From: Oscillospiraceae bacterium
GTDB taxonomy: Bacteria > Bacillota > Clostridia > Oscillospirales > Ruminococcaceae
Reading direction: 5' to 3'
DNA length: 64,000 bases
NCBI GenBank assembly: GCA_900752435.1
Contig: CAADVD010000016.1
Location: 70,367-134,366 of the forward strand
Shown here: positions 2,806-63,242 of the stretch, in pieces
How positions within the stretch are numbered: position 1 is the first letter of the stretch
How the letters are laid out: the number at the start of each line of letters is the position of its first letter
Notes under the pieces: model-generated
The model's input: the letters and a program-made list of their open reading frames with translations, nothing else
Told to the model about the DNA's origin: nothing
Database searches by the model: none
Translations under genes and position numbers: made by a program

Positions 2806-3435
2806 TTATCGATCCTTGGTGCGCAGAATGAGAAGCATGCCACGGCGCACGGTAATGCTGGCGGTTGGCGCGGCCAGCTCATTGCTGACGGTCAGGCCGC
2901 CGGTGGTGTTGTACAGGGTTTTCTCCGTCAGCGGATACCGAAATCCGGTTAGGGTAACGCCCTCGCTTTGGGAGGAATGCGAAAAAATGGACACATAGGG
3001 ATACTCGTTGGGGGTAAGCGTTCGCGTGCCGTTTTGCAGCATGGTCACTTCATTTTGTGCATCCAGCAGAGTGGCTTGTATACCGCGTTCGGTCAGCGAA
3101 GCCAACAACTGCAAATTGGCAACGGTGTGATCCAAACGGCCGCCAAGCGCACCGTACAGCACAAAGGTACGATAGCGTAGCGAAATCCCCTGTGCCACGG
3201 CCAGTTCCATGTCCGTATCGTCCTTTTCCGGTTTGACGCGGATGGTGTTGGGAAGCAGAACCTCCGCCGATTCCGAATCGAAATCGCCGACCACCCAATC
3301 GGGCTGTAAACCGCAGGCTAGGGCGTGATGGTAGCCGCCGTCCGCGCAAATGACCGCATCGCTGTCGTCCAATTCCAGATGAATAAAGCGGTAATCATCA
3401 ATGGGCGCAGCGCCAAAAATATAGCAAGTGTTCAT
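2806..3435 (-). CDS. thiN: thiamine pyrophosphokinase
   Basis: 209 aa with TPK catalytic and thiamine-binding regions, in the same position as B. subtilis yloS/thiN after rsgA. Confidence 0.85.
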   Translation of the reverse strand: MNTCYIFGAAPIDDYRFIHLELDDSDAVICADGGYHHALACGLQPDWVVGDFDSESAEVLLPNTIRVKPEKDDTDMELAVAQGISLRYRTFVLYGALGGRLDHTVANLQLLASLTERGIQATLLDAQNEVTMLQNGTRTLTPNEYPYVSIFSHSSQSEGVTLTGFRYPLTEKTLYNTTGGLTVSNELAAPTASITVRRGMLLILRTKDR

Positions 3436-4434: not shown

Positions 4435-6495
4435 CTAGTTCCGATTCTCAAGCGGCCAGTCAATGGTAGGAGCACTGGATGGTGTTTCGCTTGGCGTAGA
4501 AGATGGTGTAGGTGTTGGGGTTGGAGTTGGCGCAGGTGCAGAGGAAGACGGCGCTGGCGCACTGCTGGATGCCGGTGCCTGAATCATGGACTGATCGCTG
4601 GAGGTCATGTCCGCACGGCCATTGTCAAAGTCCACGGTAACAACCGCAAACTGCTGTCCGTCCGCCTTGATGACCACCTGCTGTTTGCCGGAGCCTTCCA
4701 CCGTCCAAGTAAACGCACCTGCTGTCGCCGGATTGATGGTGGTGGTGCCCACATTGACGCCATCCAGATAGATGCTGAAGGTCACGTTCTTATTCACCGG
4801 ATTGCCCGTAAACGGAATGGAAATCGGTACTTTTTCTTTCGGAGCCTTGCCATTGCTGACTTCAAACGGAATGGTCGCACCTTTCTTCGCCGTACCGGTT
4901 ACACTTTGTTTCAATACAGTTCCCTTTGTCTTTTTGCTGTCCACATAGCTCGGCTGACCCTTCAAACCGGCGTCCTTGAGCAATTTCAGCGCTTCTTCTT
5001 CCGTATGGCCGACCAAATTCGGTACATTCACCGTCGGTGTTTTGCCGGAACTGAGGTAAACGTTGATGGTTTGGCCGGTCTTGGTAACCGTACCTTCGGC
5101 CGGATCGGTGCGAATGACCAGATCCTTTTCAATGTCGTCGTTGTATTCACTCTGGAAGCTAACCTTGAATCCAGCTTCTTCCAGCAATGCTTTCGCAACC
5201 TCTTTGGTTTGACCGGATACGCTTGGAATCGCGGTCGATTCCAGACCGGAGCTGACGACAACGGTCACTTTAGCTCCTTCTTTTACGCGCGTACCCTCTT
5301 TCGGCGATTGTGAAATAATTTGTCCTTTGTCGTACGTATCGCTCTTTTTCTCTTCTCCCACAACAATCTTAATGTTGTCGTATTTCGGATCGTCTTTGAT
5401 GTCGTCGTATACCAATCCAACAAGATTAACCATATCAAATTCATCTTTGGACTGCTTCAATCCCACCATAAAGAGCACCACAGCGGCAATCATGACAATC
5501 GCGCAGGCCAATGCAACCGCCATCAGTACCTGCATGCTGGCCGAGGATTTTTTCTTTTTCTTCGGCTCGCCTTCCTCCTCCGTTTGCTCATCGGAAACGG
5601 CGTCAAAATACTTGGTACTGCCGTCCTCGGTGAAGTATTTGTATTCAAAAACAGTATTGGGATTGCGCTTGAATTCGTCGATGTCGCGCAGCATTTCCGA
5701 TGCGGTCTGATAGCGCAGATCGGGATCTTTTTTCATGGCGCGCACCACGATTTCTTCCAGCCCAATCGGAATATCCGGATTGATGGAACGCGGTTTCGGC
5801 GCTTCCTCCTGCATTTGCTTCACGGCAATGGAAACCGGAGTGTCACCGTCAAACGGCAGACGGCCAGTGAGCATTTCAAACATCAGCACGCCGACGGAAT
5901 AAATGTCGGTTTTTTCATCGGTGACATCGCCTCTGGCCTGTTCCGGGCTGATGTAGTGCACCGAGCCAATGGCTTTCTCGGAGATGGTGCGGCCGTTGTC
6001 ACGGGCAAAGCGCGCAATGCCGAAATCCATCACTTTGACGGTGCCGTCCTGCAAGAGCATCACGTTTTGGGGCTTGACGTCACGGTGCACAATGCCGTTG
6101 TCATGGGCGTGCTGGAGTGCGCGCAGAATCTGCACGGTGAAGTGCACGGCTTCTTTCCATGTGACAACCTTCTGCTGTTCGATGTATTCTTTTAAGGTGA
6201 TGCCGTCCACATATTCCATGACAATGAACTGCACGCGGTCGCCGAAGCTCACGTCAAAAATCTTGACGATGTTTGGGTGCGACAACACGGCAATCGCCTT
6301 GGATTCGTTCCGGAAACGCCGTTTGAAATCCTCGTTGGTCAGGTATTCTTCTTTTAAAATTTTGACGGCGACCTCTTTGTTTTCCGCCAAATCGTACGCC
6401 TTGTAAACATCGGCCATGCCGCCAATGCCAATCAGTTCGCGGATTTCATAGCGGTCGTCGAGACGCTTTCCCAAATACTTATTCAAATTTCCCAC
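4435..6495 (-). CDS. prkC: Ser/Thr protein kinase with PASTA repeats (PrkC/Stk1 family)
   Basis: Hanks kinase motifs (HRDVKPQN, DFGIA), a transmembrane helix, PASTA repeats, an extra C-terminal beta-rich domain and a Pro/Thr/Ser-rich tail. Confidence 0.9.
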   Translation of the reverse strand: MGNLNKYLGKRLDDRYEIRELIGIGGMADVYKAYDLAENKEVAVKILKEEYLTNEDFKRRFRNESKAIAVLSHPNIVKIFDVSFGDRVQFIVMEYVDGITLKEYIEQQKVVTWKEAVHFTVQILRALQHAHDNGIVHRDVKPQNVMLLQDGTVKVMDFGIARFARDNGRTISEKAIGSVHYISPEQARGDVTDEKTDIYSVGVLMFEMLTGRLPFDGDTPVSIAVKQMQEEAPKPRSINPDIPIGLEEIVVRAMKKDPDLRYQTASEMLRDIDEFKRNPNTVFEYKYFTEDGSTKYFDAVSDEQTEEEGEPKKKKKSSASMQVLMAVALACAIVMIAAVVLFMVGLKQSKDEFDMVNLVGLVYDDIKDDPKYDNIKIVVGEEKKSDTYDKGQIISQSPKEGTRVKEGAKVTVVVSSGLESTAIPSVSGQTKEVAKALLEEAGFKVSFQSEYNDDIEKDLVIRTDPAEGTVTKTGQTINVYLSSGKTPTVNVPNLVGHTEEEALKLLKDAGLKGQPSYVDSKKTKGTVLKQSVTGTAKKGATIPFEVSNGKAPKEKVPISIPFTGNPVNKNVTFSIYLDGVNVGTTTINPATAGAFTWTVEGSGKQQVVIKADGQQFAVVTVDFDNGRADMTSSDQSMIQAPASSSAPAPSSSAPAPTPTPTPTPSSTPSETPSSAPTIDWPLENRN

Positions 6496-9680: not shown

Positions 9681-10370
9681 TTAACGTCTGCGGTTGTTGG
9701 CTAAGGCCAGCAGACGCAGAAGATTGGCAATGGCCATCAGCAGTGCCGCTACATAAGTCAGCGCGGCCGCTTGGAGCATGCGCTTCGCACCGTCGTACTC
9801 CGCACCCTCCAAAATCATATCTTCGCGGATGGTTTTGAGCGCGCGTGCGCTGGCGTTGAATTCCACCGGCAGGGTGACCAATTGGAACACCACAACGGCG
9901 ACAAACAGCCAGATCCCAATGGTGATGAGCGGTTCAAAGCTCAGGACAATACCGGCAATGGCAAGCGGCCATGCCAGCGTAGAACCGAGCTGCGTGATGG
10001 GAACGATGGCAGTGCGGATTTTGATGGGCGCATAACCGACGTTGTGCTGAATGGCATGGCCGACTTCGTGTGCCGCAACGCCGATGGCCGCCACGGATCG
10101 GGAATTGTAAACGGCATCGGACAGGCGCACCACCGAGGCGGAGGGGTCAAAGTGATCGGTCAGCGAACCGGCCACGCGCTCAATGCGCACGGAGTACAGG
10201 CCGTTCTGGTCGAGGATGCGGCGGGCGATGTCATAGCCGGTAAAGCCGCGGGAATTGTTGAGTTTGCTGTATTTGTTGAATGCAGAGGACACATTCATCT
10301 GCGCCAGTGCAACGATGATGAGCGCCGGTATGACGAACATAATGTAATACTGATCAAAAAACCAAAACAT
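9681..10370 (-). CDS. membrane Zn-metallopeptidase (YpfJ-type neutral zinc metallopeptidase family)
   Basis: HEVGH zinc-binding motif (GVAAHEVGHAIQH) flanked by transmembrane helices. Confidence 0.7.
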   Translation of the reverse strand: MFWFFDQYYIMFVIPALIIVALAQMNVSSAFNKYSKLNNSRGFTGYDIARRILDQNGLYSVRIERVAGSLTDHFDPSASVVRLSDAVYNSRSVAAIGVAAHEVGHAIQHNVGYAPIKIRTAIVPITQLGSTLAWPLAIAGIVLSFEPLITIGIWLFVAVVVFQLVTLPVEFNASARALKTIREDMILEGAEYDGAKRMLQAAALTYVAALLMAIANLLRLLALANNRRR

Positions 10371-10397
10371 AACATTCCTCCTTGAAATTCTGAACCA

Positions 10398-11318
10398 TTA
10401 ACCGAGCAGAGTTCCCTTTTCAATGTGCTGGCCGCGCAAAAAGGCTTCGGCAGGCATGCGCTTGGAGCCTTCAAACTGCACTTCCAGCAGACGGATGGCG
10501 GTGCCATCGCCGCAGGCGACGACAAAGGTTTTGTTGTCGAGCACTTCGCCCGGTTTTCCTGTGCCGTTTGCCAACTGGGATTTGTAGACCTTGAGGCGTT
10601 TGCCCATCAGCGAAGTGACAGCACACGGCCATGTGGACAGGCCGCGAATCTGGTTGTGCACCAGTTGGGCGGGTTTGGTGAAGTCCAGTGCGCAAAGCTC
10701 TTTGGTGAGCATGGGGGCGTGGCTGGCTTCTTCGTCGTTTTGCACGGTGCGCGGCACTTGGCCGGTGTGCACCAAACGGAGGGTATCCAATAAGGTTTGC
10801 GCACCCAGCACGGCCAAGCGGTCGTGCAGTTCGCTGGCGGTTTCATCCTCGCCGATGGCAGTCTCCGATTTTAGAATCATGTCGCCGGTGTCAATTCCTT
10901 CCGCCATGTACATGGTGGTAACGCCGGTTTTCGTTTCACCGTTGAGGACGCTCCATTGAATCGGGCCTGCACCGCGATACTTCGGCAGTAAGCTGGCATG
11001 GACGTTGATACAGCCGTGCGGTGGAACATCCAGAATCGCTTGGGGCAGGATTTTGCCGTAAGCCACGACCACAGCCAAATCCGGTTTGAGTGCGGCAAAT
11101 TTGGCCTGCGCTTCCTCGGTGCGGAGCGTTGCCGGCTGGTAAACCGGAATGCCATGCGAAACGGCCAGCTCCTTGACCGGCGGCGGCAATACTTTATGCC
11201 CTCTTCCCTTGGGCTTATCGGGCTGGGTATACACGGCGATCACCTGTTCGCCGCTGTCCAGCAGAGCTTGCAGGCACGGAACGGCAAAATCCGGCGTGCC
11301 CATAAAAACAATGTTCAT
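10398..11318 (-). CDS. fmt: methionyl-tRNA formyltransferase
   Basis: MNIVFMGTPDFAV N-terminus and formyltransferase HASLLPKYRG motif. Confidence 0.95.
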   Translation of the reverse strand: MNIVFMGTPDFAVPCLQALLDSGEQVIAVYTQPDKPKGRGHKVLPPPVKELAVSHGIPVYQPATLRTEEAQAKFAALKPDLAVVVAYGKILPQAILDVPPHGCINVHASLLPKYRGAGPIQWSVLNGETKTGVTTMYMAEGIDTGDMILKSETAIGEDETASELHDRLAVLGAQTLLDTLRLVHTGQVPRTVQNDEEASHAPMLTKELCALDFTKPAQLVHNQIRGLSTWPCAVTSLMGKRLKVYKSQLANGTGKPGEVLDNKTFVVACGDGTAIRLLEVQFEGSKRMPAEAFLRGQHIEKGTLLG

Positions 11319-27340: not shown

Positions 27341-28540
27341 TTAGTAGTTTAAAATATGACCCATTTTTGCTTGTTTTGTTTTTAAATAGAACAAATCCTC
27401 TGTTGTTGCGTCCATTTGAATGGGAACACGTTCCGTAATTTCCATACCAAAATCCGAAAGCTGATAAACTTTATCGGGATTGTTGGTGAGAAGACGCAGG
27501 GTTTTCGCCCCCAAATCGCGCAAAATTTGTGCTCCGATGTAATATTCACGCTCATCACCGGCAAAGCCGAGTGCCAGATTGGCCTCCAAGGTATCCATCC
27601 CCTGCTCCTGAAGCTCATAAGCGCGCAATTTGTTGATGAGGCCAATGCCGCGTCCCTCCTGGCGCATATAAAGCAGGATACCACGGCCTTCCCTCTCAAT
27701 CTGAGTCATGGCCGCCGCAAACTGCTGGCCGCAGTCACAGCGTAAGGACCCGAACGTATCACCGGTCAGACATTCGGAATGCACTCTGCACAGCAAATTC
27801 TCGCCATTCCCGATTTCTCCCTTTACCAAAGCCACATGATGTTCGCCGTTGAGCCGGTTGACATAGCCATAAGCCATAAAGTTCCCATATTTAGTAGGCA
27901 TCTTTGTCACCGTCACACGATCCACCAGTTTTTCATGCCGCTTGCGGTAGGCCTGCAAAGCTTGAATGGTGATGAATTTTAACTTCCATTTTTGAGCCAG
28001 TTCCATCAGCTCCGGAGTCCGCATCATCGTGCCGTCCTCCCGCATGATTTCACAGCACAGTCCGCATTCCTTCAGTCCTGCCAAACGCATCAAATCCACT
28101 GTGGCTTCGGTGTGGCCGTTTCGCTCCAGTACGCCGTTTCTCTTCGCCAACAGCGGAAACATATGCCCCGGACGGCGGAAATCCTCCGGCTTGACGCCGT
28201 CTTCCACGCACTTCATAGCGGTGACGGAACGTTCTGCGGCAGAAATCCCAGTCGTGGTGCTGATATGGTCGATGGAAAACGTAAAGGCAGTTTCGTGATT
28301 ATCCGTATTTTGCGTCACCATTTGAGGAATTTGCAGTTTGCGCACATATTCCTCCGACATGGGCATACAGATAAGCCCTTTCCCATGCGTTGCCATGAAG
28401 TTGATGTTTTCCGTCGTAGCAAACTGCGCGGCGCAGATAAAATCGCCCTCATTTTCCCGTTCCGGATCATCCGTGACCAGCACAACTTTCCCCTGCCGCA
28501 GATCGTCCAATGCTTCTTCAATTGTGTTGAATGTAACCAT
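27341..28540 (-). CDS. ribBA: bifunctional 3,4-dihydroxy-2-butanone-4-phosphate synthase / GTP cyclohydrolase II
   Basis: N-terminal DHBP synthase and C-terminal GCHII with a CxxGxxxxSxRCDC zinc motif. Confidence 0.95.
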
Positions 28541-28559
28541 TCTCCAGCTCCTCTCTTCG

Positions 28560-29207
28560 TCAATAACCGTATTTGGCCAAAAATTCTCGTGTCAATCCGC
28601 CGTTCGGTTGGGAGACAGCTTTGGGACACAGAAATTTTTCAACATACTTTCCAACAATGTCCGTTTCCAGATTGACGGCATCTCCAATCCGCCGTTCTTT
28701 TAAGGTCGTTTCGCGGACGGTATGCGGAATGGCGGAAATCGAAAAATACGCCGTTTCCACCTTTGCCACCGTTAAACTGATGCCGTCAATCGCAATCGAG
28801 CCTTTCTCGACAATGTATTTCATCACCGATTCCGCCGCCTGGACGGTGTACCAAACGGCATTGTCGTCCTGCTCAATCCGCATAATCTTTCCCATGCCAT
28901 CTACATGGCCGGCCACAATATGACCACCAAAACGTCCGTCAACCGGCATGGCACGCTCCAAATTCACACGACTGCCGGTTTGAAGCAGCGCAAGAGCGGA
29001 ACGGTTCAACGTTTCGTGCATGACATCCGCCGAAAAGCCCTGCTTATGAAACGAAGTGACGGTCAGGCACACCCCATTGACCGCTACACTGTCGCCAATC
29101 TTCAAATCATCCAAAATCTTCTGCGCCTGGATGTGCAGAACGGCGGAATGCGAACCATTCTGAATGCGTTCAATCTTTCCAACTTCCTCAATGATTCCCG
29201 TAAACAT
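28560..29207 (-). CDS. ribE: riboflavin synthase alpha subunit
   Basis: [10 protein letters not shown] duplicated lumazine-binding repeats. Confidence 0.9.
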
Positions 29208-30294
29208 CTCCGCACACCTCGCTCTCAATCAAAAAATCTTCTCCCAACGGCAAAATCGTACTATTTTTCAAACGCACCGCATCCGCTGGTTCGGCAAAAC
29301 CCAGTCCGCTGACCGGTGATTTCGCAGTCCGCCCCCCGAATAATTTCGGCGCAACATACGCCTGCACTTTCTGTACAATGCCGCTTTCAAGCGCCGCCCA
29401 GTTGAGTTCCGCACCGCCCTCCAGCAGAATGCTGTCAATGCCAATCGAACCAATCTGTTTCATCAGCTCCTGCAAATCAACACGACCGTTTCGTTTCGGC
29501 AGAGTAAAAACACGGCACCCCGCATTTTGATAGGCCAACTGCCTCTCCTCATCGGTACAGCAAGTGGCCAGTATCGTGGGAACCTCCTTGGCTGTCTGCA
29601 CCAACTGAGCGGAAAGCGGCGTCCGAAGCTGTGTGTCACAAACGATGCGAACCGGGTTCTTACCGCCCTCAATGCGGCAGGTCAACAGTGGATCATCGGC
29701 CAACACCGTTCCGATTCCCACCATAATGGCACTGTATCGGTGCCGCTGCTGATGAACATGCTTCCGAGCCGTTTCCCCCGTAATCCATTGGGAAGCACCA
29801 GTATACGTCGCCATTTTCCCATCCATCGTCATCGCGTATTTCAGCACCACATAAGGGCGCTTAGTCCGAATAAAATGGAAGAACACCTCGTTGAGCTTCC
29901 TGCATTCTTCAGCCAAAACCTGTTCCGTGACGGCTACGCCATGCCGGCGGAGAATCTCAATCCCCTTACCCGAAACCAAGGGATTCGGGTCGCCGGAGCC
30001 AATCACCACACGGGCAATTTTCGCCTCCAAAACCGCTTCCACACAGGGCGGCTGTTTGCCGTGGTGACAGCATGGCTCCAACGTGACATACATCGTCGCA
30101 CCGGCAGGTGATTCCGTACAGGCGGCCAAAGCGTTTCGCTCGGCATGGAGTTCCCCGTATTTTGCATGATACCCCTGCCCAATGATGCGCCCGTTTTTCA
30201 CAATCACCGCTCCTACCATGGGATTGGGCGATACCCAGCCACAGCCCTTTTGGGCAAGCTGTATGGCAAGATTCATGTACTCTGGGTCGCTCAT
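29188..30294 (-). CDS. ribD: bifunctional diaminohydroxyphosphoribosylaminopyrimidine deaminase / 5-amino-6-(5-phosphoribosylamino)uracil reductase
   Basis: CMP/dCMP deaminase zinc motif (HAE...PCxxC) plus a RibD C-terminal reductase domain. Start at the ATG after GGAGGGG. Confidence 0.9.
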   Translation of the reverse strand: MSDPEYMNLAIQLAQKGCGWVSPNPMVGAVIVKNGRIIGQGYHAKYGELHAERNALAACTESPAGATMYVTLEPCCHHGKQPPCVEAVLEAKIARVVIGSGDPNPLVSGKGIEILRRHGVAVTEQVLAEECRKLNEVFFHFIRTKRPYVVLKYAMTMDGKMATYTGASQWITGETARKHVHQQRHRYSAIMVGIGTVLADDPLLTCRIEGGKNPVRIVCDTQLRTPLSAQLVQTAKEVPTILATCCTDEERQLAYQNAGCRVFTLPKRNGRVDLQELMKQIGSIGIDSILLEGGAELNWAALESGIVQKVQAYVAPKLFGGRTAKSPVSGLGFAEPADAVRLKNSTILPLGEDFLIESEVCGDVYGNH

Positions 30295-30310
30295 TTTGTT
30301 CCCCTCCAAA

Positions 30311-30346
30311 AGCAAAAAATGTCTTGAACGAAATCGTTCAAGACAT
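30311..30346 (-). terminator. riboswitch expression-platform terminator (attenuator)
   Basis: GTCTTGAACGATTTCGTTCAAGAC hairpin followed by TTTTTTGC, immediately before the ribD SD. Confidence 0.6.
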
Positions 30347-30575
30347 TGATAAAAGGAACGCCAATACGGCTTTGCTCAAAACACAAAATGGCTCTGAAAT
30401 GATACACATTCCAGAGCCATGATACGCAAACAAATCCATGCAATCCTGCATTCCATCATCTTCTTTCATCCAGACTGTACTGTCGGCTTCGGAGTTTCAC
30501 CGAATCATACCTTGCGGTTCGTGGGCTATACCACCGGTAGGGAATTCCACCCTGCCCTGAAGATTTCGATTCAAT
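30323..30575 (-). ncRNA. FMN riboswitch (RFN element) leader of the rib operon
   Basis: The minus strand contains conserved blocks ...CAGGGCAGGGTGGAATTCCCTACCGG...GGTGAAACTCCGAAGCCGACAGTACAGTCTGGATGAAAGAAGATG..., matching the RFN consensus (GGTGAAATTCC / GCCGACAGT / AGTCTGGATG / GAGAAG). Confidence 0.85.
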
Positions 30576-56032: not shown

Positions 56033-57070
56033 TCATCTCGTTATCACATAAATCTCCATATCGGAAAAATCCTTATTCAGAATGAAATCATCTTTAATTC
56101 CTTCTGTCAGATAAATTTCTTTTTCATCCGTTATCAGCAACATTTCAAAATTGCCGTTTTCCTGCCAGTATTCTGTTGCTCCATTAAGCCCCATTACATA
56201 AATAGCCGTAGACAGGGCATCGCACAACTTGCCTTCTTTTGCCATGATGGAAACAGAGGCTAAACCGCTTTCTGCCGGATAGCCGGTGGAAGGGTCAATA
56301 ATATGCCCGTATTGCTTTCCATCCTCACCTACAAAATATCTCTCATAATTCCCGGACGTCACCACAGCACTGTCCTCGCTCTCCAAAATACCCAAGCTGC
56401 CTTCTCCAAACGGGTTCTGTATGCCAAGCCGCCACCTGCTGCCATCTGGTTTTCTGCCGACCATCTGAATATTTCCGCCTATATCCAACAGAGCCGAAGT
56501 AACTCCCTGCTCTTTCAGTAATTCTGCTATGATGTCGCCTGTATATCCTTTTCCCACCGCGCCGAGATCCAACTGCATTCCATCTGGCAGGGTTACAAAG
56601 TTTTCTTCTAAAAGCACTTTTTCATAGTCTACGTTTTTCAATAGGCCTGTCAGTTCATCCGCAGCAGGTATTTGATATTCTCCGCTGATAAAGCCCCATG
56701 CAGTCACAACTGGGAAAATGGTCGGATCAAGTGCTCCATTTGTCCGATGCGCCATATCCAGTGCAAATTGTAAAATTTCTGCTGTTTCTTCGTGAATCTC
56801 GGTTGGTATACCGCCGTTTTGGTTCACTGTATAAATATCGCTGTTTTCATCCGTAACCGACCATAGGGATTCCAGTTCTTTAATTCTATCCTCGGAAAGC
56901 GTAAGCGCTTCCTCTGCTGACTCTCCATAGGCAGTCAGTGTCATATAGGTACCCATTGCAAACACTCCGACTGTGTGTTCTTCCTCTGGTTTGCTCTGTA
57001 CGCTGCACCCGGAAAGCAACAGCGCAAATAAGAGCAGAAGGGAAATGAATTTATTGCTTTTTCTCCACAA
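56033..57070 (-). CDS. apbE: FAD:protein FMN transferase ApbE, lipoprotein
   Basis: ApbE-family sequence throughout. Start at an in-frame TTG 7 nt after GGAAGGAGG, giving the lipobox LLSGCS. The ORF-track ATG extension has no signal peptide. Confidence 0.85.
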   Translation of the reverse strand: MWRKSNKFISLLLLFALLLSGCSVQSKPEEEHTVGVFAMGTYMTLTAYGESAEEALTLSEDRIKELESLWSVTDENSDIYTVNQNGGIPTEIHEETAEILQFALDMAHRTNGALDPTIFPVVTAWGFISGEYQIPAADELTGLLKNVDYEKVLLEENFVTLPDGMQLDLGAVGKGYTGDIIAELLKEQGVTSALLDIGGNIQMVGRKPDGSRWRLGIQNPFGEGSLGILESEDSAVVTSGNYERYFVGEDGKQYGHIIDPSTGYPAESGLASVSIMAKEGKLCDALSTAIYVMGLNGATEYWQENGNFEMLLITDEKEIYLTEGIKDDFILNKDFSDMEIYVITR

Positions 57071-57245
57071 GTTTTTTCCTCCTTCCGGCCAGCTTTTGAA
57101 TCCCCTTGGAAGTATAATGTGCCAGAAAAACCAACAGGCCCATGATGGCAATATACTCCGTAAAAAAGAGCAGGACAGGCCTTTCAAAATCAAAGAAAAC
57201 AAAGGAGGATGTCAAAAACATATAGGACAAAAATTGATTTTTCAC
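57051..57245 (-). CDS. possible 64-aa two-helix membrane peptide overlapping the apbE start
   Basis: ORF-track entry; hydrophobic. No clear SD. Speculative. Confidence 0.2.
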   Translation of the reverse strand: MKNQFLSYMFLTSSFVFFDFERPVLLFFTEYIAIMGLLVFLAHYTSKGIQKLAGRRKKLVEKKQ

Positions 57246-57260
57246 GAAAGCATAAAGGCC

Positions 57261-57752
57261 TTACCCGGCCACCAAGGCCGCAGCTATGCGCAGAAGGATT
57301 CGCAACGGTTTAGAAGCAACCGGCCCGGTGGCTTTACGCACCATGCCGAGAATCATATTCCAGTGTAGGCCGAGATGCAGGGCCATCAGCACAAATCCCC
57401 AAAATGCGGAAAGCACATGCAACGGCCTTGCCAGAGCGATACCGCCGGAAATCGGCAGGAAAGCGAAAACCTCTCTGGAAAGAATCATTCCGCTTACCAT
57501 TAAACCGAACATGGAGAGCAGTACAGCGAAATTTGTCACTGTCTGCAAAATGCGTATAGGCGTATATTTTCCTTTGAAAAGATGGCTATACCAGCTCCGG
57601 TTGAGAATATGATGGGCAATCCATAAAATAAGCATACCCGCTCCGAGCCATTCATGAGCGGAATCTCCGGTGAGCTGCCGCGCCATGAGGAACAGCAATA
57701 AGACCGTCATGATCAGATCCATGACGATTTTGCATATCCATTTTTTCTTCAT
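57261..57752 (-). CDS. 4-TM His-rich membrane protein (DUF4405-like, from memory)
   Basis: Four predicted transmembrane helices with conserved His (HEWLG, HHILN, HVLSAFW, HLGLHW). Start at MKKKW after GGGAGGAA. Confidence 0.55.
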   Translation of the reverse strand: MKKKWICKIVMDLIMTVLLLFLMARQLTGDSAHEWLGAGMLILWIAHHILNRSWYSHLFKGKYTPIRILQTVTNFAVLLSMFGLMVSGMILSREVFAFLPISGGIALARPLHVLSAFWGFVLMALHLGLHWNMILGMVRKATGPVASKPLRILLRIAAALVAG

Positions 57753-57823
57753 CAGAAACATTCCTCCCATTTGCAGATAAGAGCCTGCCTGTCAAACCAC
57801 GGGCAGGCCCTTACTTGTTATCA

Positions 57824-58582
57824 TTACTCGGCGGCCAAATTAAGACCATTCACCCAATCCACAACATCACTCTCTGCTCCTGATACACTGTTTCGGGAAA
57901 TAGAAAGACCGTCGGAAATAACGGTTGCGTTCGGCTGCAATTCCGAGATCGTCTGAATGGTTCTGGAAAATCCGCTTCCACCGTGAGTGGTAAATGGAAT
58001 AATGGTTTTGCCGCTGAAATCATATTCTTCAAGAAATGTATAGAGCGGCATCGGCAAGTCGGCATTCCAGTTCGGGTAGCCCAAGAAAATCACGTCATAG
58101 CTGTCGAGGTTTTCAATCTGTGTCGCAAGCTCTGGTCTGGCATTGTCGGCTTTTTCATTGTAGGCAAATTCCAAGAGGGGATCGTGCGTGGTCGGATATT
58201 CCTGCACCGTTTCAATGGCAAACAGATCGCCGCCCGTTTCGCGCTGAATCATTTGTGCAATGTACTCGTTATTTCCCAAGACCTCTCCGTTTACTGCTAC
58301 GCGACTTGCACCGGCTACGGTGTCCACGCCGTCCGTTTCCATGACGGAAAAATATGCAATCAGAATATTGCTGTTACCCGCTTCCGCAGTTTTCGCGCTG
58401 TCTGTGATGCTTTCCATTCTTTCTCCCGGACTTTCCACACTGCTGTCACCGGATTCCATTGTCGGAGCTTTGGACTCCGTTCCTGCTGATGTATCCTCCA
58501 CAGTATTTTGATTGCTGTTGCCACAAGCAGCCAGAGAAAGAACCAGCAGAGCAGAAAGAAGTATGGCTGTTAATTTTTTCAT
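57824..58582 (-). CDS. flavodoxin-like lipoprotein carrying a flavinylation-like DTVAGAS insertion in place of the FMN phosphate-binding loop
   Basis: Lipobox LSLAACG, and YFS followed by VMETDGVDTVAGASRVAVNGEVLG where paralogs have the YTGNT loop. The rest aligns with the flavodoxin lipoproteins at 59682 and 62031. Confidence 0.7.
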   Translation of the reverse strand: MKKLTAILLSALLVLSLAACGNSNQNTVEDTSAGTESKAPTMESGDSSVESPGERMESITDSAKTAEAGNSNILIAYFSVMETDGVDTVAGASRVAVNGEVLGNNEYIAQMIQRETGGDLFAIETVQEYPTTHDPLLEFAYNEKADNARPELATQIENLDSYDVIFLGYPNWNADLPMPLYTFLEEYDFSGKTIIPFTTHGGSGFSRTIQTISELQPNATVISDGLSISRNSVSGAESDVVDWVNGLNLAAE

Positions 58583-58621: not shown

Positions 58622-59164
58622 TCAACAGATATTTTTACCCATCTGGTATGCTTCCTGCATTGCAGGATTTCTTTGAATATCGCCAAGCTGCCAAGCTCCA
58701 GCGCCATAGATAACGCCCATCTCTTTTGCTCCCGGCAGGCATTCGATGTAACCGCGCAGCCCGTCAACTGTCCGTTCCATAGCCGCCTTTTCATCGGCGG
58801 CAGTAGCGATCAGATAAAACTCTTTGTTTTCCAGACCGGCTTTCTGCGCTCCGCCCAAAGTACGGTCGATTATGGTTTTCATCTGCGCACACATGGTGTA
58901 GAAGTATACAGGAGTAGCCAAAACGATCACATCCGCATCCCGCATTTTCGCAATGACCGATTCCATATCATCCTGCTTCACACAATGTCCTAGCTTTTTA
59001 CAGGCATAGCAGGCGGAACAATAGTCAATGATGAGTTCCGCAAGCCGGATTTTATTCACCCGATTGCCCACTTCTTCCGCGCCTTTCATAAACTGATCGC
59101 AAAGCGTGTCTGAATTGCCGCTCTTACGGGGGCTGGACGAAATAATCAAAACATTTTTACTCAT
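58622..59164 (-). CDS. iron-sulfur flavoprotein / NAD(P)H-dependent FMN reductase family (cytoplasmic)
   Basis: Flavodoxin-like fold (LIISSSPRKSGNS) plus CxxCxxCx5C (CSACYACKKLGHC). Confidence 0.75.
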   Translation of the reverse strand: MSKNVLIISSSPRKSGNSDTLCDQFMKGAEEVGNRVNKIRLAELIIDYCSACYACKKLGHCVKQDDMESVIAKMRDADVIVLATPVYFYTMCAQMKTIIDRTLGGAQKAGLENKEFYLIATAADEKAAMERTVDGLRGYIECLPGAKEMGVIYGAGAWQLGDIQRNPAMQEAYQMGKNIC

Positions 59165-59681: not shown

Positions 59682-60326
59682 TTATTCCATAAGTCCAAGC
59701 CCCTGAATCCACGGATCAATATCATTCAGATCATTTGCGGTAAGTCCTTCTGCAATCTCCGCATCCGGGCAAAGCTCACTGAAAATATGCAGGCTGTTGC
59801 CAATGTCGTCGCTGGAGCTTGTGCAGAAGGGGATGATCGTCTTACCCGAAAAATCATTCTCTGCAAGGAAAGTCGCTATCATGGCCGGAGCCTCATCCCA
59901 CCAGATCGGATAACCTACAAAAATCGTGTCGTATCCCTCAATACTATCCACGGACACAGTAATCTCCGGGTGTATGCCATCCAAAATTTCTGCCTCGGCT
60001 TCCTCCTGCAAATCTCCATATTCTTCTGTACGCTGAATCTCAGCCAAAGTGCCGCCAGTGTATTCCGCAATCATCTGCGCTACTTCTTCCGTGTTTCCTG
60101 TATAGGAAAAATATGCAATCAAAACATTTCCACCATTCGCTCCTGTCTCTGCGGTTTCCGGTTCTGTTGTTTCAGGTTCTTCTGTTTGCAGCGCCTCCGA
60201 TACAGTCTCGGTTTCGTCAGCCACAGAAGATGTTTCTGCAGAAGGGTTATTGTTACCGCAAGCTGCCAATACAAAGCTGAGAACCAACATTAAAGTAAGA
60301 AGTAAAATACTTTTTCTGATTTTCAT
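59682..60326 (-). CDS. flavodoxin-like lipoprotein (extracytoplasmic)
   Basis: Lipobox LAACG, acidic linker, YFSYTGNTE FMN loop and GYPIWW motif. Confidence 0.7.
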   Translation of the reverse strand: MKIRKSILLLTLMLVLSFVLAACGNNNPSAETSSVADETETVSEALQTEEPETTEPETAETGANGGNVLIAYFSYTGNTEEVAQMIAEYTGGTLAEIQRTEEYGDLQEEAEAEILDGIHPEITVSVDSIEGYDTIFVGYPIWWDEAPAMIATFLAENDFSGKTIIPFCTSSSDDIGNSLHIFSELCPDAEIAEGLTANDLNDIDPWIQGLGLME

Positions 60327-62030: not shown

Positions 62031-63242
62031 TTATTCTACAAATCCATTCTCTGTCAGATAAGCAAGGATACCCTCCGTATCAGATGCCTCTGTAAACAGA
62101 CCATCATGGACATTCGCTCCCGCAGCGCTTTCCCGCACAAATCCCATAGAATTTTCAAACTGTTCTGTATCCATGGATGCGGACTGCGTGAAAGGATAAA
62201 CCTCAACACCGGAAAGATCGTAGTTTTCTAAAAATGTTCCGATAATCATCGGAGCCGTATGCCACCAGATGGGATAGCCCACGAAGACTGTATCATATTC
62301 TGAAATGGAATCCGGCAGATTGGCTATTTCCGGTCGGGCATTTTCGTCACGTTCTACCAACGCAACATCTCCACATTCTTCATAGTCTGTCGGATAGGGA
62401 ATCAGAGGTTCAAGCTCCAGCAGGTCGCCGCCAATCTGCTCCTGAATGTAGGTTGCCATTTTCTCCGTGTTTCCAGAGGTAGACCATGAGAAATATACAA
62501 TCAAAGTTTTTCCATTCTCACCAGATACCCCTGTTGCCTCTTTACCTTCCTCGCTTACAGTCGTTTCAGGTTTCGAAGGTTCAGCCTGAGTTTCATCACT
62601 GGGCTGCGCAGCATTCCCAGTCAACCCTAATTCTGAAAGCCATCCATCAATCTGGCTTGTTCCACTGATCCGTCTTTCCCCATATACTGCTAAGCCGTCA
62701 CAGGAATTAAGGAATGTTGGCATTGTTTCGTCAATGTCACTTCCGCCGCTGGTGCAGAACGGAATAATAAGTTTTCCTGTCAGATCATAGCTTTCCAAAA
62801 ACGTGTTGATGGGGGCCGGTGTTGCGTGCCACCATACCGGATAGCCCACAAACACAATGTCATATTCCTCCATGTTTTCCACTGTATCCGTCAAAGCTGG
62901 CCGTTCATTTCCCCTGATTTCACGATTGGATTCCATATATACATTGGAATAGCCATCCTGCGGGGTTATCTCAAACAAGTCGCCGCCAGTTTTTTCGCTG
63001 ATTGCATTTGCAATGTTTTTTGTTGTCCCGGAATAGGAAAAATAAGCAACCAGCACTTTTATGTCGGATTGAGAAAGGATTTCCTCCCTCACTTCCTCAA
63101 CCTGCGAATCATTCAAAGAATTGTCCGTCAAACTTCTGAACATTGCAGGGTAACGGTAAATGTTGTACCCTACGAAAGCGAGGGCAAGAATAACGATCAC
63201 TGCGATTACCGCAATGAAACCTTTTTTACGCTTCATTGTCAT
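62031..63242 (-). CDS. membrane-anchored tandem (double) flavodoxin-like protein
   Basis: N-terminal transmembrane anchor, then two flavodoxin modules (YFSYSGTTK...GYPVWW and YFSWSTSGNTEK...GYPIWW) joined by an acidic linker. Confidence 0.7.
   Translation of the reverse strand: MTMKRKKGFIAVIAVIVILALAFVGYNIYRYPAMFRSLTDNSLNDSQVEEVREEILSQSDIKVLVAYFSYSGTTKNIANAISEKTGGDLFEITPQDGYSNVYMESNREIRGNERPALTDTVENMEEYDIVFVGYPVWWHATPAPINTFLESYDLTGKLIIPFCTSGGSDIDETMPTFLNSCDGLAVYGERRISGTSQIDGWLSELGLTGNAAQPSDETQAEPSKPETTVSEEGKEATGVSGENGKTLIVYFSWSTSGNTEKMATYIQEQIGGDLLELEPLIPYPTDYEECGDVALVERDENARPEIANLPDSISEYDTVFVGYPIWWHTAPMIIGTFLENYDLSGVEVYPFTQSASMDTEQFENSMGFVRESAAGANVHDGLFTEASDTEGILAYLTENGFVE

Follow-up and report, generated by a model that had tools for sequence, protein, structure and literature searches.

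Huang et al. (2024, mSystems; PMC11334425) mined the Genome Taxonomy Database (GTDB) for genes linked to apbE, the gene of a flavin adenine dinucleotide (FAD):protein flavin mononucleotide (FMN) transferase. They described proteins of the Flavodoxin_4 family (PF12682) that carry a flavinylated Ser in an insertion between beta1 and alpha1 and whose genes co-localize with apbE and DUF4405. Two members, SHO45324.1 of Anaerocolumna xylanovorans and WP_073032509.1 of Desulfosporosinus lacus, were validated by co-expression with the cognate ApbE; both carried a UV-fluorescent covalent flavin that required the Ser/Thr and was lost in the Ser-to-Ala mutants (PMC11334425). The same study described the ApbE motif as '[S/T]GA[S/T]-like', noted that apbE-DUF4405 clusters often encode a flavinylated Flavodoxin_4 protein, found that one purified DUF4405 protein binds haem b, and likened DUF4405 to MsrQ and PepSY-like cytochromes (PMC11334425). 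We analyzed a 64,000-nt stretch of contig CAADVD010000016.1 from an Oscillospiraceae bacterium (the window), in which the minus-strand gene at 57824..58582 encodes a flavodoxin with the sequence D-T-V-A-G-A-S. The initial annotation had proposed that this flavodoxin gave up non-covalent FMN binding for covalent flavinylation by ApbE, and had named no described precedent for it. The precedent exists, since a 2024 paper reported the class and proved it by experiment, and the proposed switch is supported, as the protein matches this validated class in all the features that we examined. We consider it highly likely that the product of 57824..58582 is a member of the ApbE-flavinylated Flavodoxin_4 class that works in a chain of export, flavinylation and electron transfer. 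Beyond PMC11334425, our literature search found no paper joining these terms.

The gene lies where the initial annotation had placed it and encodes a Flavodoxin_4 lipoprotein precursor of 252 aa. Its N-terminus (MKKLTAILLSALLVLSLAAC, 58523..58582) reads as a signal peptide that ends in the lipobox LSLAAC (L-A-A-C, Cys20); the established lipobox consensus is [LVI][ASTVI][GAS]C. An acidic, Ser/Thr-rich tether runs from residue 21 to about residue 70 and is followed by a flavodoxin-like domain that contains the stretch ILIAYFSVMETDGVDTVAGASRVAVNGEVLGNNEYIAQMI. This anatomy predicts that the protein is extracytosolic and lipid-anchored at Cys20. Pfam PF12682 matched the protein with 75.1 bits (E 5.7e-21) against a cut-off of 24, with the match beginning at profile position 13, past the phosphate loop, so that the loop part of the profile was left unmatched. 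The NCBIfam model NF005389 (PRK06934, 'flavodoxin' equivalog) scored 234.9 bits against a cut-off of 172 and its match spanned the insertion described below; annotation pipelines therefore name such proteins just 'flavodoxin', which hides the covalent-flavin subclass. The protein had no Pfam match to FMN_bind (PF04205) at E<=0.01.

We aligned the protein by MAFFT with the three canonical Flavodoxin_4 modules of the same gene cluster, which have the loops YFSYTGNT, YFSYSGTT and YFSWSTSGNT. The alignment confirmed an insertion in the FMN phosphate-binding loop between beta1 and alpha1 (residues 82-102, ETDGVDTVAGASRVAVNGEVL, 58277..58339), which amounts to 21 extra residues relative to two of the modules and 19 relative to the third (YFSWSTSGNT). 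The 21 extra residues had been noted in the initial annotation, which took them to delete the loop, but the loop is split and expanded rather than deleted: Ser79 (S10 of the domain) is kept before the insertion and G-N-N follows it, so that the S...G-N-(T/N) pattern remains, with G-N-T in most relatives. A contiguous T/S-x-T/S-G-x-T loop of the canonical kind was not found right after beta1, where the 21 residues interrupt it. The D-T-V-A-G-A-S motif occupies residues 87-93 inside the insertion (58304..58324, coordinates checked), and its last residue, to which the initial annotation gave the number 92 but which is Ser93 when counted in the precursor (58304..58306), is predicted to accept the FMN in a phosphoester bond. 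The pattern D..[AST][GSA]A[ST] matched only once, at DTVAGAS, in the 30,154 aa of the long open reading frames (ORFs) of the window. A chance origin of the motif was ruled out by this single match and by the column-wise conservation across the subfamily given below.

An AlphaFold2 model built with a 37-sequence alignment had a predicted local distance difference test score (pLDDT) of 88.3 and a predicted template modelling score of 0.87. The model has beta1 at domain residues 4-8 and alpha1 at 35-47, with the insertion between them as a short helix (19-22) and a hairpin (25-34). The top fold matches in the PDB were 4ICI, 4J8P and 3KLB (Foldseek E 2.5e-10 to 4.8e-9; target-normalised TM 0.75-0.85), which also led by sequence with 24-26% identity; the sequence alignments to them start just past the insertion, at residues 33-36, and end near residues 150-158. 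As modelled and aligned, the insertion lies within the FMN phosphate-binding loop.

The insertion and the motif are traits of a whole subfamily. We searched 1.84 billion cluster representatives at 50% identity, obtained 568 matches below 1e-30, and aligned the best 150 of them with phmmer. Among these best 150, the same beta1-alpha1 insertion was present in 117 domains, and 76 of the 117 had D..[AST][GSA]A[ST] in the same alignment column. Taken by column, the motif Asp occurred in 96 of the insertion-bearing domains, the Ala in 89 and the acceptor Ser in 110. The initial annotation had regarded the Ala at motif position 4 as a deviation, but Ala is the commonest residue there (41 domains, against 33 with Ser and 23 with Thr). 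The exact DTVAGAS was found in 8 cluster representatives and DAVAGAS in 11. The closer homologues retained the motif in 207 out of 212 cases, with A/S and G/S exchanges at positions 4 and 5 that are tolerated by the ApbE motif; at position 4, Ala, Ser and Thr swap freely. Relatives of the window protein number more than 7,600 in all; each of the best 120 is at least 80% identical to it over the aligned regions, and the few relatives labelled by organism come from Frisingicoccus, Roseburia, metagenome-assembled genomes (MAGs) of Eubacteriales and [Clostridium] innocuum.

Not every insertion-bearing domain has this motif. A different insert, PETxxxNMTxEExNSTVVIDG, was present in 15 of the 117 domains, with the Ser column conserved and the G-A absent, while five domains read D..xRAS instead. 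Examples of this second insert subtype (PETxxPNNMTxEEENSTVVIDGxVLGNT) are found at loci L021 (4453..5208), L028 (9671..10549) and L029 of Enterococcus pallens (9830..10534), and further PETxxPNNMTxEEENS-type inserts are found at L032, L034, L037 and L049. We found no apbE in the fetched flank of any of these loci, and this type of insert may be unflavinylated or modified differently. Separately, we noted a natural fusion (P0008) in which a canonical and an insertion-bearing Flavodoxin_4 domain are joined in one lipoprotein, and tandem proteins (P0066, P0102 and P0121) with two or three Flavodoxin_4 domains that each have a motif of their own, for example DASAGAS and DANASAS. Judged by these motifs, the tandem proteins are probably multi-flavinylated flavodoxins.

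To relate the motif to gene context, GTDB was scanned with the subfamily profile, one genome per species, and every Flavodoxin_4 domain in the resulting 80 loci was classified. The ORFs of these loci, with flanks of at most 10 kb on contigs that were often short, were searched with hidden Markov models built on two seeds, the window ApbE and the intact DUF4405 orthologue of C. innocuum (L006). An apbE gene was present in 7 of the 37 loci with a motif-bearing copy and in none of the 43 loci without one (Fisher p=0.003). By domain, apbE was at most 5 kb away from 10 of 44 motif-bearing domains and 0 of 85 canonical ones, although domains in one locus are not independent. The order insertion-bearing Flavodoxin_4, DUF4405 and, in some cases, ApbE recurred in Paenibacillus phytohabitans, Thomasclavelia saccharogumia and Oscillospiraceae MAGs. 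The Flavodoxin_4-DUF4405 pair was also seen without a local apbE in the Pasteurellaceae, with Chelonobacter and Aggregatibacter (DGVSGAS), in Pseudocitrobacter (DGFSGAS) and on an IncFIB/HI1B plasmid of Klebsiella pneumoniae.

In the window, apbE (56033..57070, minus strand) encodes a lipoprotein of 345 aa with the lipobox LLSGC. Its PF02424 match (1.1e-83) covers profile positions 1-265 of 266, and hence the full length of the domain; its best NCBIfam match was FAD:protein FMN transferase ApbE (9e-39, 133 bits), under the 498-bit equivalog cut-off. An apbE gene of identical length was called in L001 and L094. The gene stands on the same strand as the flavodoxin gene and two genes downstream of it, beyond DUF4405. 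The initial annotation had put it three genes downstream, but this count holds for ORFs only, because a stop codon cuts the DUF4405 gene. Directly upstream of the flavodoxin gene lies a gene for a cytosolic, NAD(P)H-dependent flavin reductase of the FMN_red family (58622..59164, minus strand; 180 aa; PF03358 2.1e-23), in which we found neither a signal peptide nor a flavinylation motif. The trio of FMN_red, insertion-bearing Flavodoxin_4 and DUF4405 is conserved in L006, L009, L010, L091 and L094, and on this conserved adjacency the FMN_red protein is a candidate cytosolic electron donor.

The features that define the published class recur at 57824..58582. The protein is of family PF12682 and has a beta1-alpha1 insertion with the motif and its acceptor Ser inside; its gene has a full-length apbE nearby and DUF4405, interrupted here, directly downstream; and its predicted location is extracytosolic. 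Taken together, the conserved motif, the insertion, the apbE gene in the operon, the tracking of motif-bearing copies by apbE and the class of PMC11334425 support covalent flavinylation well, and it is very probable, as judged from sequence, that the neighbouring ApbE links the flavin covalently to this protein.

The proposed chain would begin with export of the flavodoxin and its lipid anchoring at Cys20. At the external membrane surface, the local ApbE, whose gene is the second one downstream, or a further ApbE of the same cell would then move the FMN moiety of FAD to the hydroxyl of Ser93 to form a phosphoester. The tethered flavin would still fill the conserved isoalloxazine pocket, which it could reach because the insertion sits inside the very loop with which ordinary flavodoxins hold the FMN phosphate, and the covalent attachment would stop the cofactor from diffusing off outside the cell. 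Electrons would flow from NAD(P)H through FMN_red and the DUF4405 haem-b cytochrome to the flavinylated flavodoxin, and from there to an extracellular or cell-wall acceptor. The flavinylation step draws on the class-level experiments, with a Ser-dependent covalent flavin demonstrated in two members and haem b in one DUF4405 protein (PMC11334425); for the window protein itself we infer its flavinylation, along with FMN_red as the donor, the course that the electrons take and the acceptor.

The DUF4405 gene (57051..57752, minus strand; 233 codons; PF14358 2.6e-11) forms one reading frame with an internal, in-frame TAA at codon 164 (57261..57263). The uninterrupted DUF4405 orthologues of L006, L091 and L094 have TAT (Tyr) at this codon. 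Four independent assemblies share this TAA with the window, while the gene of the sister strain L094, with 98.7% DNA identity, is intact; the change from TAT to TAA is a recent nonsense mutation. A sequencing error was ruled out by the identical TAA in the four independent assemblies, and an alternative genetic code was ruled out by the identity of the codon (TAA), the normal termination of other genes and the Tyr found in the orthologues. The start of apbE overlaps the last 20 nt of the full-length DUF4405 frame, so the nonsense codon may uncouple the translation of apbE, and the electron-transfer chain may be impaired in this strain.

Several observations weigh against membership in the class together with a chain of this kind at the locus. 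The DUF4405 gene is cut at codon 164, which also removes overlap-coupled read-through into apbE. Both C. innocuum and the close variant that is most widespread have a truncated local apbE. The insertion was modelled at moderate confidence only (pLDDT 67-75). No apbE lay inside the fetched flank of 30 of the 37 motif-bearing loci. Finally, DUF4405 was adjacent to 14 of 44 motif-bearing domains and to 20 of 85 canonical ones, a difference that is not significant, and DUF4405 adjacency was rejected as a specific marker of flavinylated copies. The initial annotation had held that insertion-bearing homologues without a neighbouring apbE would speak against flavinylation; such homologues were found in many genomes, but they are not decisive because ApbE acts in trans, truncated apbE remnants persist at those loci and the contigs are often short.

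The observations on DUF4405 and apbE also bear on a different reading, namely that the flavodoxin is a member of the flavinylated class within a decaying module, in which it is made, and perhaps flavinylated, but is unwired by the truncated DUF4405 from the cytosolic electron pool and survives as a functional relic. We regard this as possible, though we lean against it. The nonsense codon at position 164 of 233, shared by the window and four independent assemblies and absent from L094, favours it, as do other lesions in relatives: in the commonest variant (P0051, 403 index blocks) truncation of apbE leaves 118 aa (L091-L093, 9564..9920), C. innocuum has an apbE remnant (L006, 11553..11897), and L094, with DUF4405 and apbE intact, has fragments of CMD and RibD_C (2939..3205 and 5726..6037) and lacks the canonical Flavodoxin_4 lipoprotein gene. 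The truncated apbE products are about 115-118 aa long. However, the 163-aa product of the interrupted DUF4405 gene still has four predicted transmembrane helices, with the His residues in helices 2 and 4 retained, and the 69 codons past the stop have stayed intact, with an internal GTG from which separate translation could start. Neither the flavodoxin gene nor apbE is damaged, the motif is conserved, and the DUF4405 mutation is too recent to show decay.

All genes from 63242 down to 56033 are on the minus strand. In the order of transcription they encode a membrane-anchored double Flavodoxin_4 protein, RibD_C, an alpha/beta-hydrolase lipoprotein, a canonical Flavodoxin_4 lipoprotein, a cyclophilin-like lipoprotein, the cytosolic FMN_red, the insertion-bearing flavodoxin, DUF4405 and the lipoprotein ApbE. 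Contigs with an identical flavodoxin protein add MerR, FMN_red, CMD and Fe-ADH genes upstream, and DUF6544, MarR and Flavodoxin_5 genes downstream. The canonical lipoprotein (59682..60326, minus strand; YFSYTGNT loop, lipobox LAAC) and the double protein (62031..63242, minus strand; YFSYSGTT and YFSWSTSGNT loops, N-terminal membrane anchor) have no flavinylation motif, and from their sequences all three of these modules are also predicted to be extracytosolic. Such paralogues do not agree with a simple rule by which an extracytosolic location implies flavinylation. A 53-nt gap separates the stop codon of the flavodoxin gene from the ribosome-binding site of DUF4405, and in it we noted a 10-bp GC-rich inverted repeat (GCCTGCCTGT...ACGGGCAGGC, 57783..57808) that could be an intra-operon attenuator or an mRNA-stabilising hairpin. 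Elsewhere in the window, an FMN riboswitch (RF00050, 111 bits, E 5e-25; 30454..30568, minus strand) lies just upstream of three minus-strand ORFs (27341..30315), which we take to be a putative riboflavin-biosynthesis operon; it looks ordinary and is about 27 kb from the flavoprotein island.

Two relatives of the module are associated with mobile DNA. Locus L089 is on a conjugative IncFIB/HI1B plasmid of K. pneumoniae (NZ_CP141562.1, 44902-55450), where a heavy-metal two-component system is followed by a flavodoxin with the insertion motif DGFSGAS, DUF4405, a cupin, a CMD-family protein, a second flavodoxin, an FGE-family protein and an alpha/beta hydrolase. The CMD protein, the alpha/beta hydrolase and the extra flavodoxin are common to this locus and the window cluster, which hints at a shared function. 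In [Clostridium] innocuum GCA_024591195.1 (L006, 1668..8964) the trio adjoins genes of a MobL relaxase, a TraG-like coupling protein and Toprim, and the flavodoxin there is 82% identical to the window protein. This adjacency, together with the identity above 80% across Lachnospiraceae and Erysipelotrichaceae, suggests horizontal spread on a mobile element. A megablast search of the module against plasmids gave no match, and tblastn against plasmids found relatives below 60% identity only.

A wider reading of this gene content is that the flavinylated flavodoxin serves as the membrane-proximal entry to a larger surface redox relay of covalent and non-covalent flavodoxins, in a horizontally mobile system for extracellular reduction or detoxification in gut bacteria. 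It draws on the pairing in the operon with three motif-less Flavodoxin_4 modules, the cyclophilin-like and alpha/beta-hydrolase lipoproteins, CMD, Fe-ADH, RibD_C and MerR/MarR-type regulators, and on the similar partner set (CMD, alpha/beta hydrolase, second flavodoxin) of the Flavodoxin_4-DUF4405 pair on the Klebsiella plasmid. Its mobility part draws on the identity above 80% of the module across Lachnospiraceae and C. innocuum and on the conjugation genes that adjoin the module in the latter. We think this relay unlikely, if worth stating; if true, it would contradict the simple rule that equates extracytosolic flavodoxins with flavinylated ones.

The motif-less modules also bear on the question of what the local ApbE does. 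It might serve another substrate, or act as an FAD pyrophosphatase or in flavin trafficking that feeds the three non-covalent Flavodoxin_4 modules, with its proximity to the motif being secondary. The three canonical modules, predicted to be extracytosolic, would need FMN outside the cell, and some ApbE/Ftp homologues are described as FAD pyrophosphatases (PMC4767422). However, we found no other protein in the window with a flavinylation motif or an FMN_bind domain, the apbE association follows the motif-bearing copies and not the canonical ones, and the two ApbE roles are not mutually exclusive; we hold this account to be improbable. Least probable of all is that the insertion is a structural or partner-docking loop of surface flavodoxins that bind FMN non-covalently and that its GA[ST]-like sequence is no ApbE target, since, although the S...G-N-(T/N) of the phosphate loop persists around it, Ala takes the place of the textbook Ser/Thr at motif position 4, the NMTxEExNS insert of 15 domains has no GA[ST] and many loci have no apbE nearby, the motif Asp, Ala and Ser are near-invariant in the subfamily, apbE occurs only near motif-bearing copies, position 4 is interchangeable among Ala, Ser and Thr in close homologues, and mutation of the Ser abolished the covalent flavin in two members of the class (PMC11334425).

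Membership in the flavinylated class, the reading that we prefer, makes 57824..58582 an ordinary further member of a class that was described and confirmed in 2024, and no new question is opened by it; nevertheless, reading the sequence alone recovered a real post-translational switch, in which a flavodoxin has its FMN tethered by ApbE instead of bound non-covalently. The new details are local and are modest leads: the nonsense codon in DUF4405, the decay in relatives and the motif-less extracytosolic paralogues in the operon. To the 2024 description our analysis adds that the class is very common in gut Firmicutes, with more than 7,600 relatives, many of them over 80% identical, and reaches Proteobacteria and plasmids; that Ala is preferred at the first position of [S/T]GA[S/T]; that one or the other of the local apbE and DUF4405 genes has often been lost or damaged; and that motif-less extracytosolic Flavodoxin_4 paralogues coexist with the flavinylated copy. 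These points could be of use for the annotation and study of extracellular electron transfer in gut anaerobes.

The closest described systems are SHO45324.1 and WP_073032509.1, which share with the window protein the family PF12682, the Ser in a motif-like insertion, the Firmicutes origin, the cluster with apbE and DUF4405 and the predicted extracytosolic location. The comparison with them is by published description, the window protein being known from its sequence; the window cluster differs from theirs in the nonsense codon of DUF4405 and in the three motif-less extracytosolic Flavodoxin_4 modules. The structures 3KLB (Bacteroides fragilis, FMN complex), 4ICI and 4J8P have the same fold at 24-26% identity but, unlike the window protein, have a contiguous short phosphate loop without insertion or motif and bind FMN non-covalently. 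The FMN_bind substrates NqrC, RnfG and Listeria PplA, and likewise NqrB/RnfD, carry an extracytosolic Ser/Thr in D-x-x-[s/t]-[g/s]-A-[S/T] to which ApbE attaches FMN by a phosphoester, and PplA is, like the window flavodoxin in the proposed chain, a surface lipoprotein that ends an electron-export chain. NqrC, RnfG and PplA have an unrelated fold, whereas in the window protein the motif appears grafted onto a site that already bound flavin non-covalently. The flavinylated FMN_red of Lactococcus lactis and L. taiwanensis (PMC11334425) is a second flavodoxin-like flavoprotein of the non-covalent kind to have gained an ApbE motif; its motif is on a C-terminal extension, while that of the window flavodoxin is in the beta1-alpha1 loop. 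Lastly, the proposed logic of a cytosolic flavin reductase, a di-haem-b membrane protein and an extracytosolic redox protein would resemble that of Fre - MsrQ - MsrP and of the PepSY-like and MsrQ-like cytochromes associated with flavinylation, with the difference from Fre - MsrQ - MsrP that both the family of the membrane protein and the acceptor protein are distinct.

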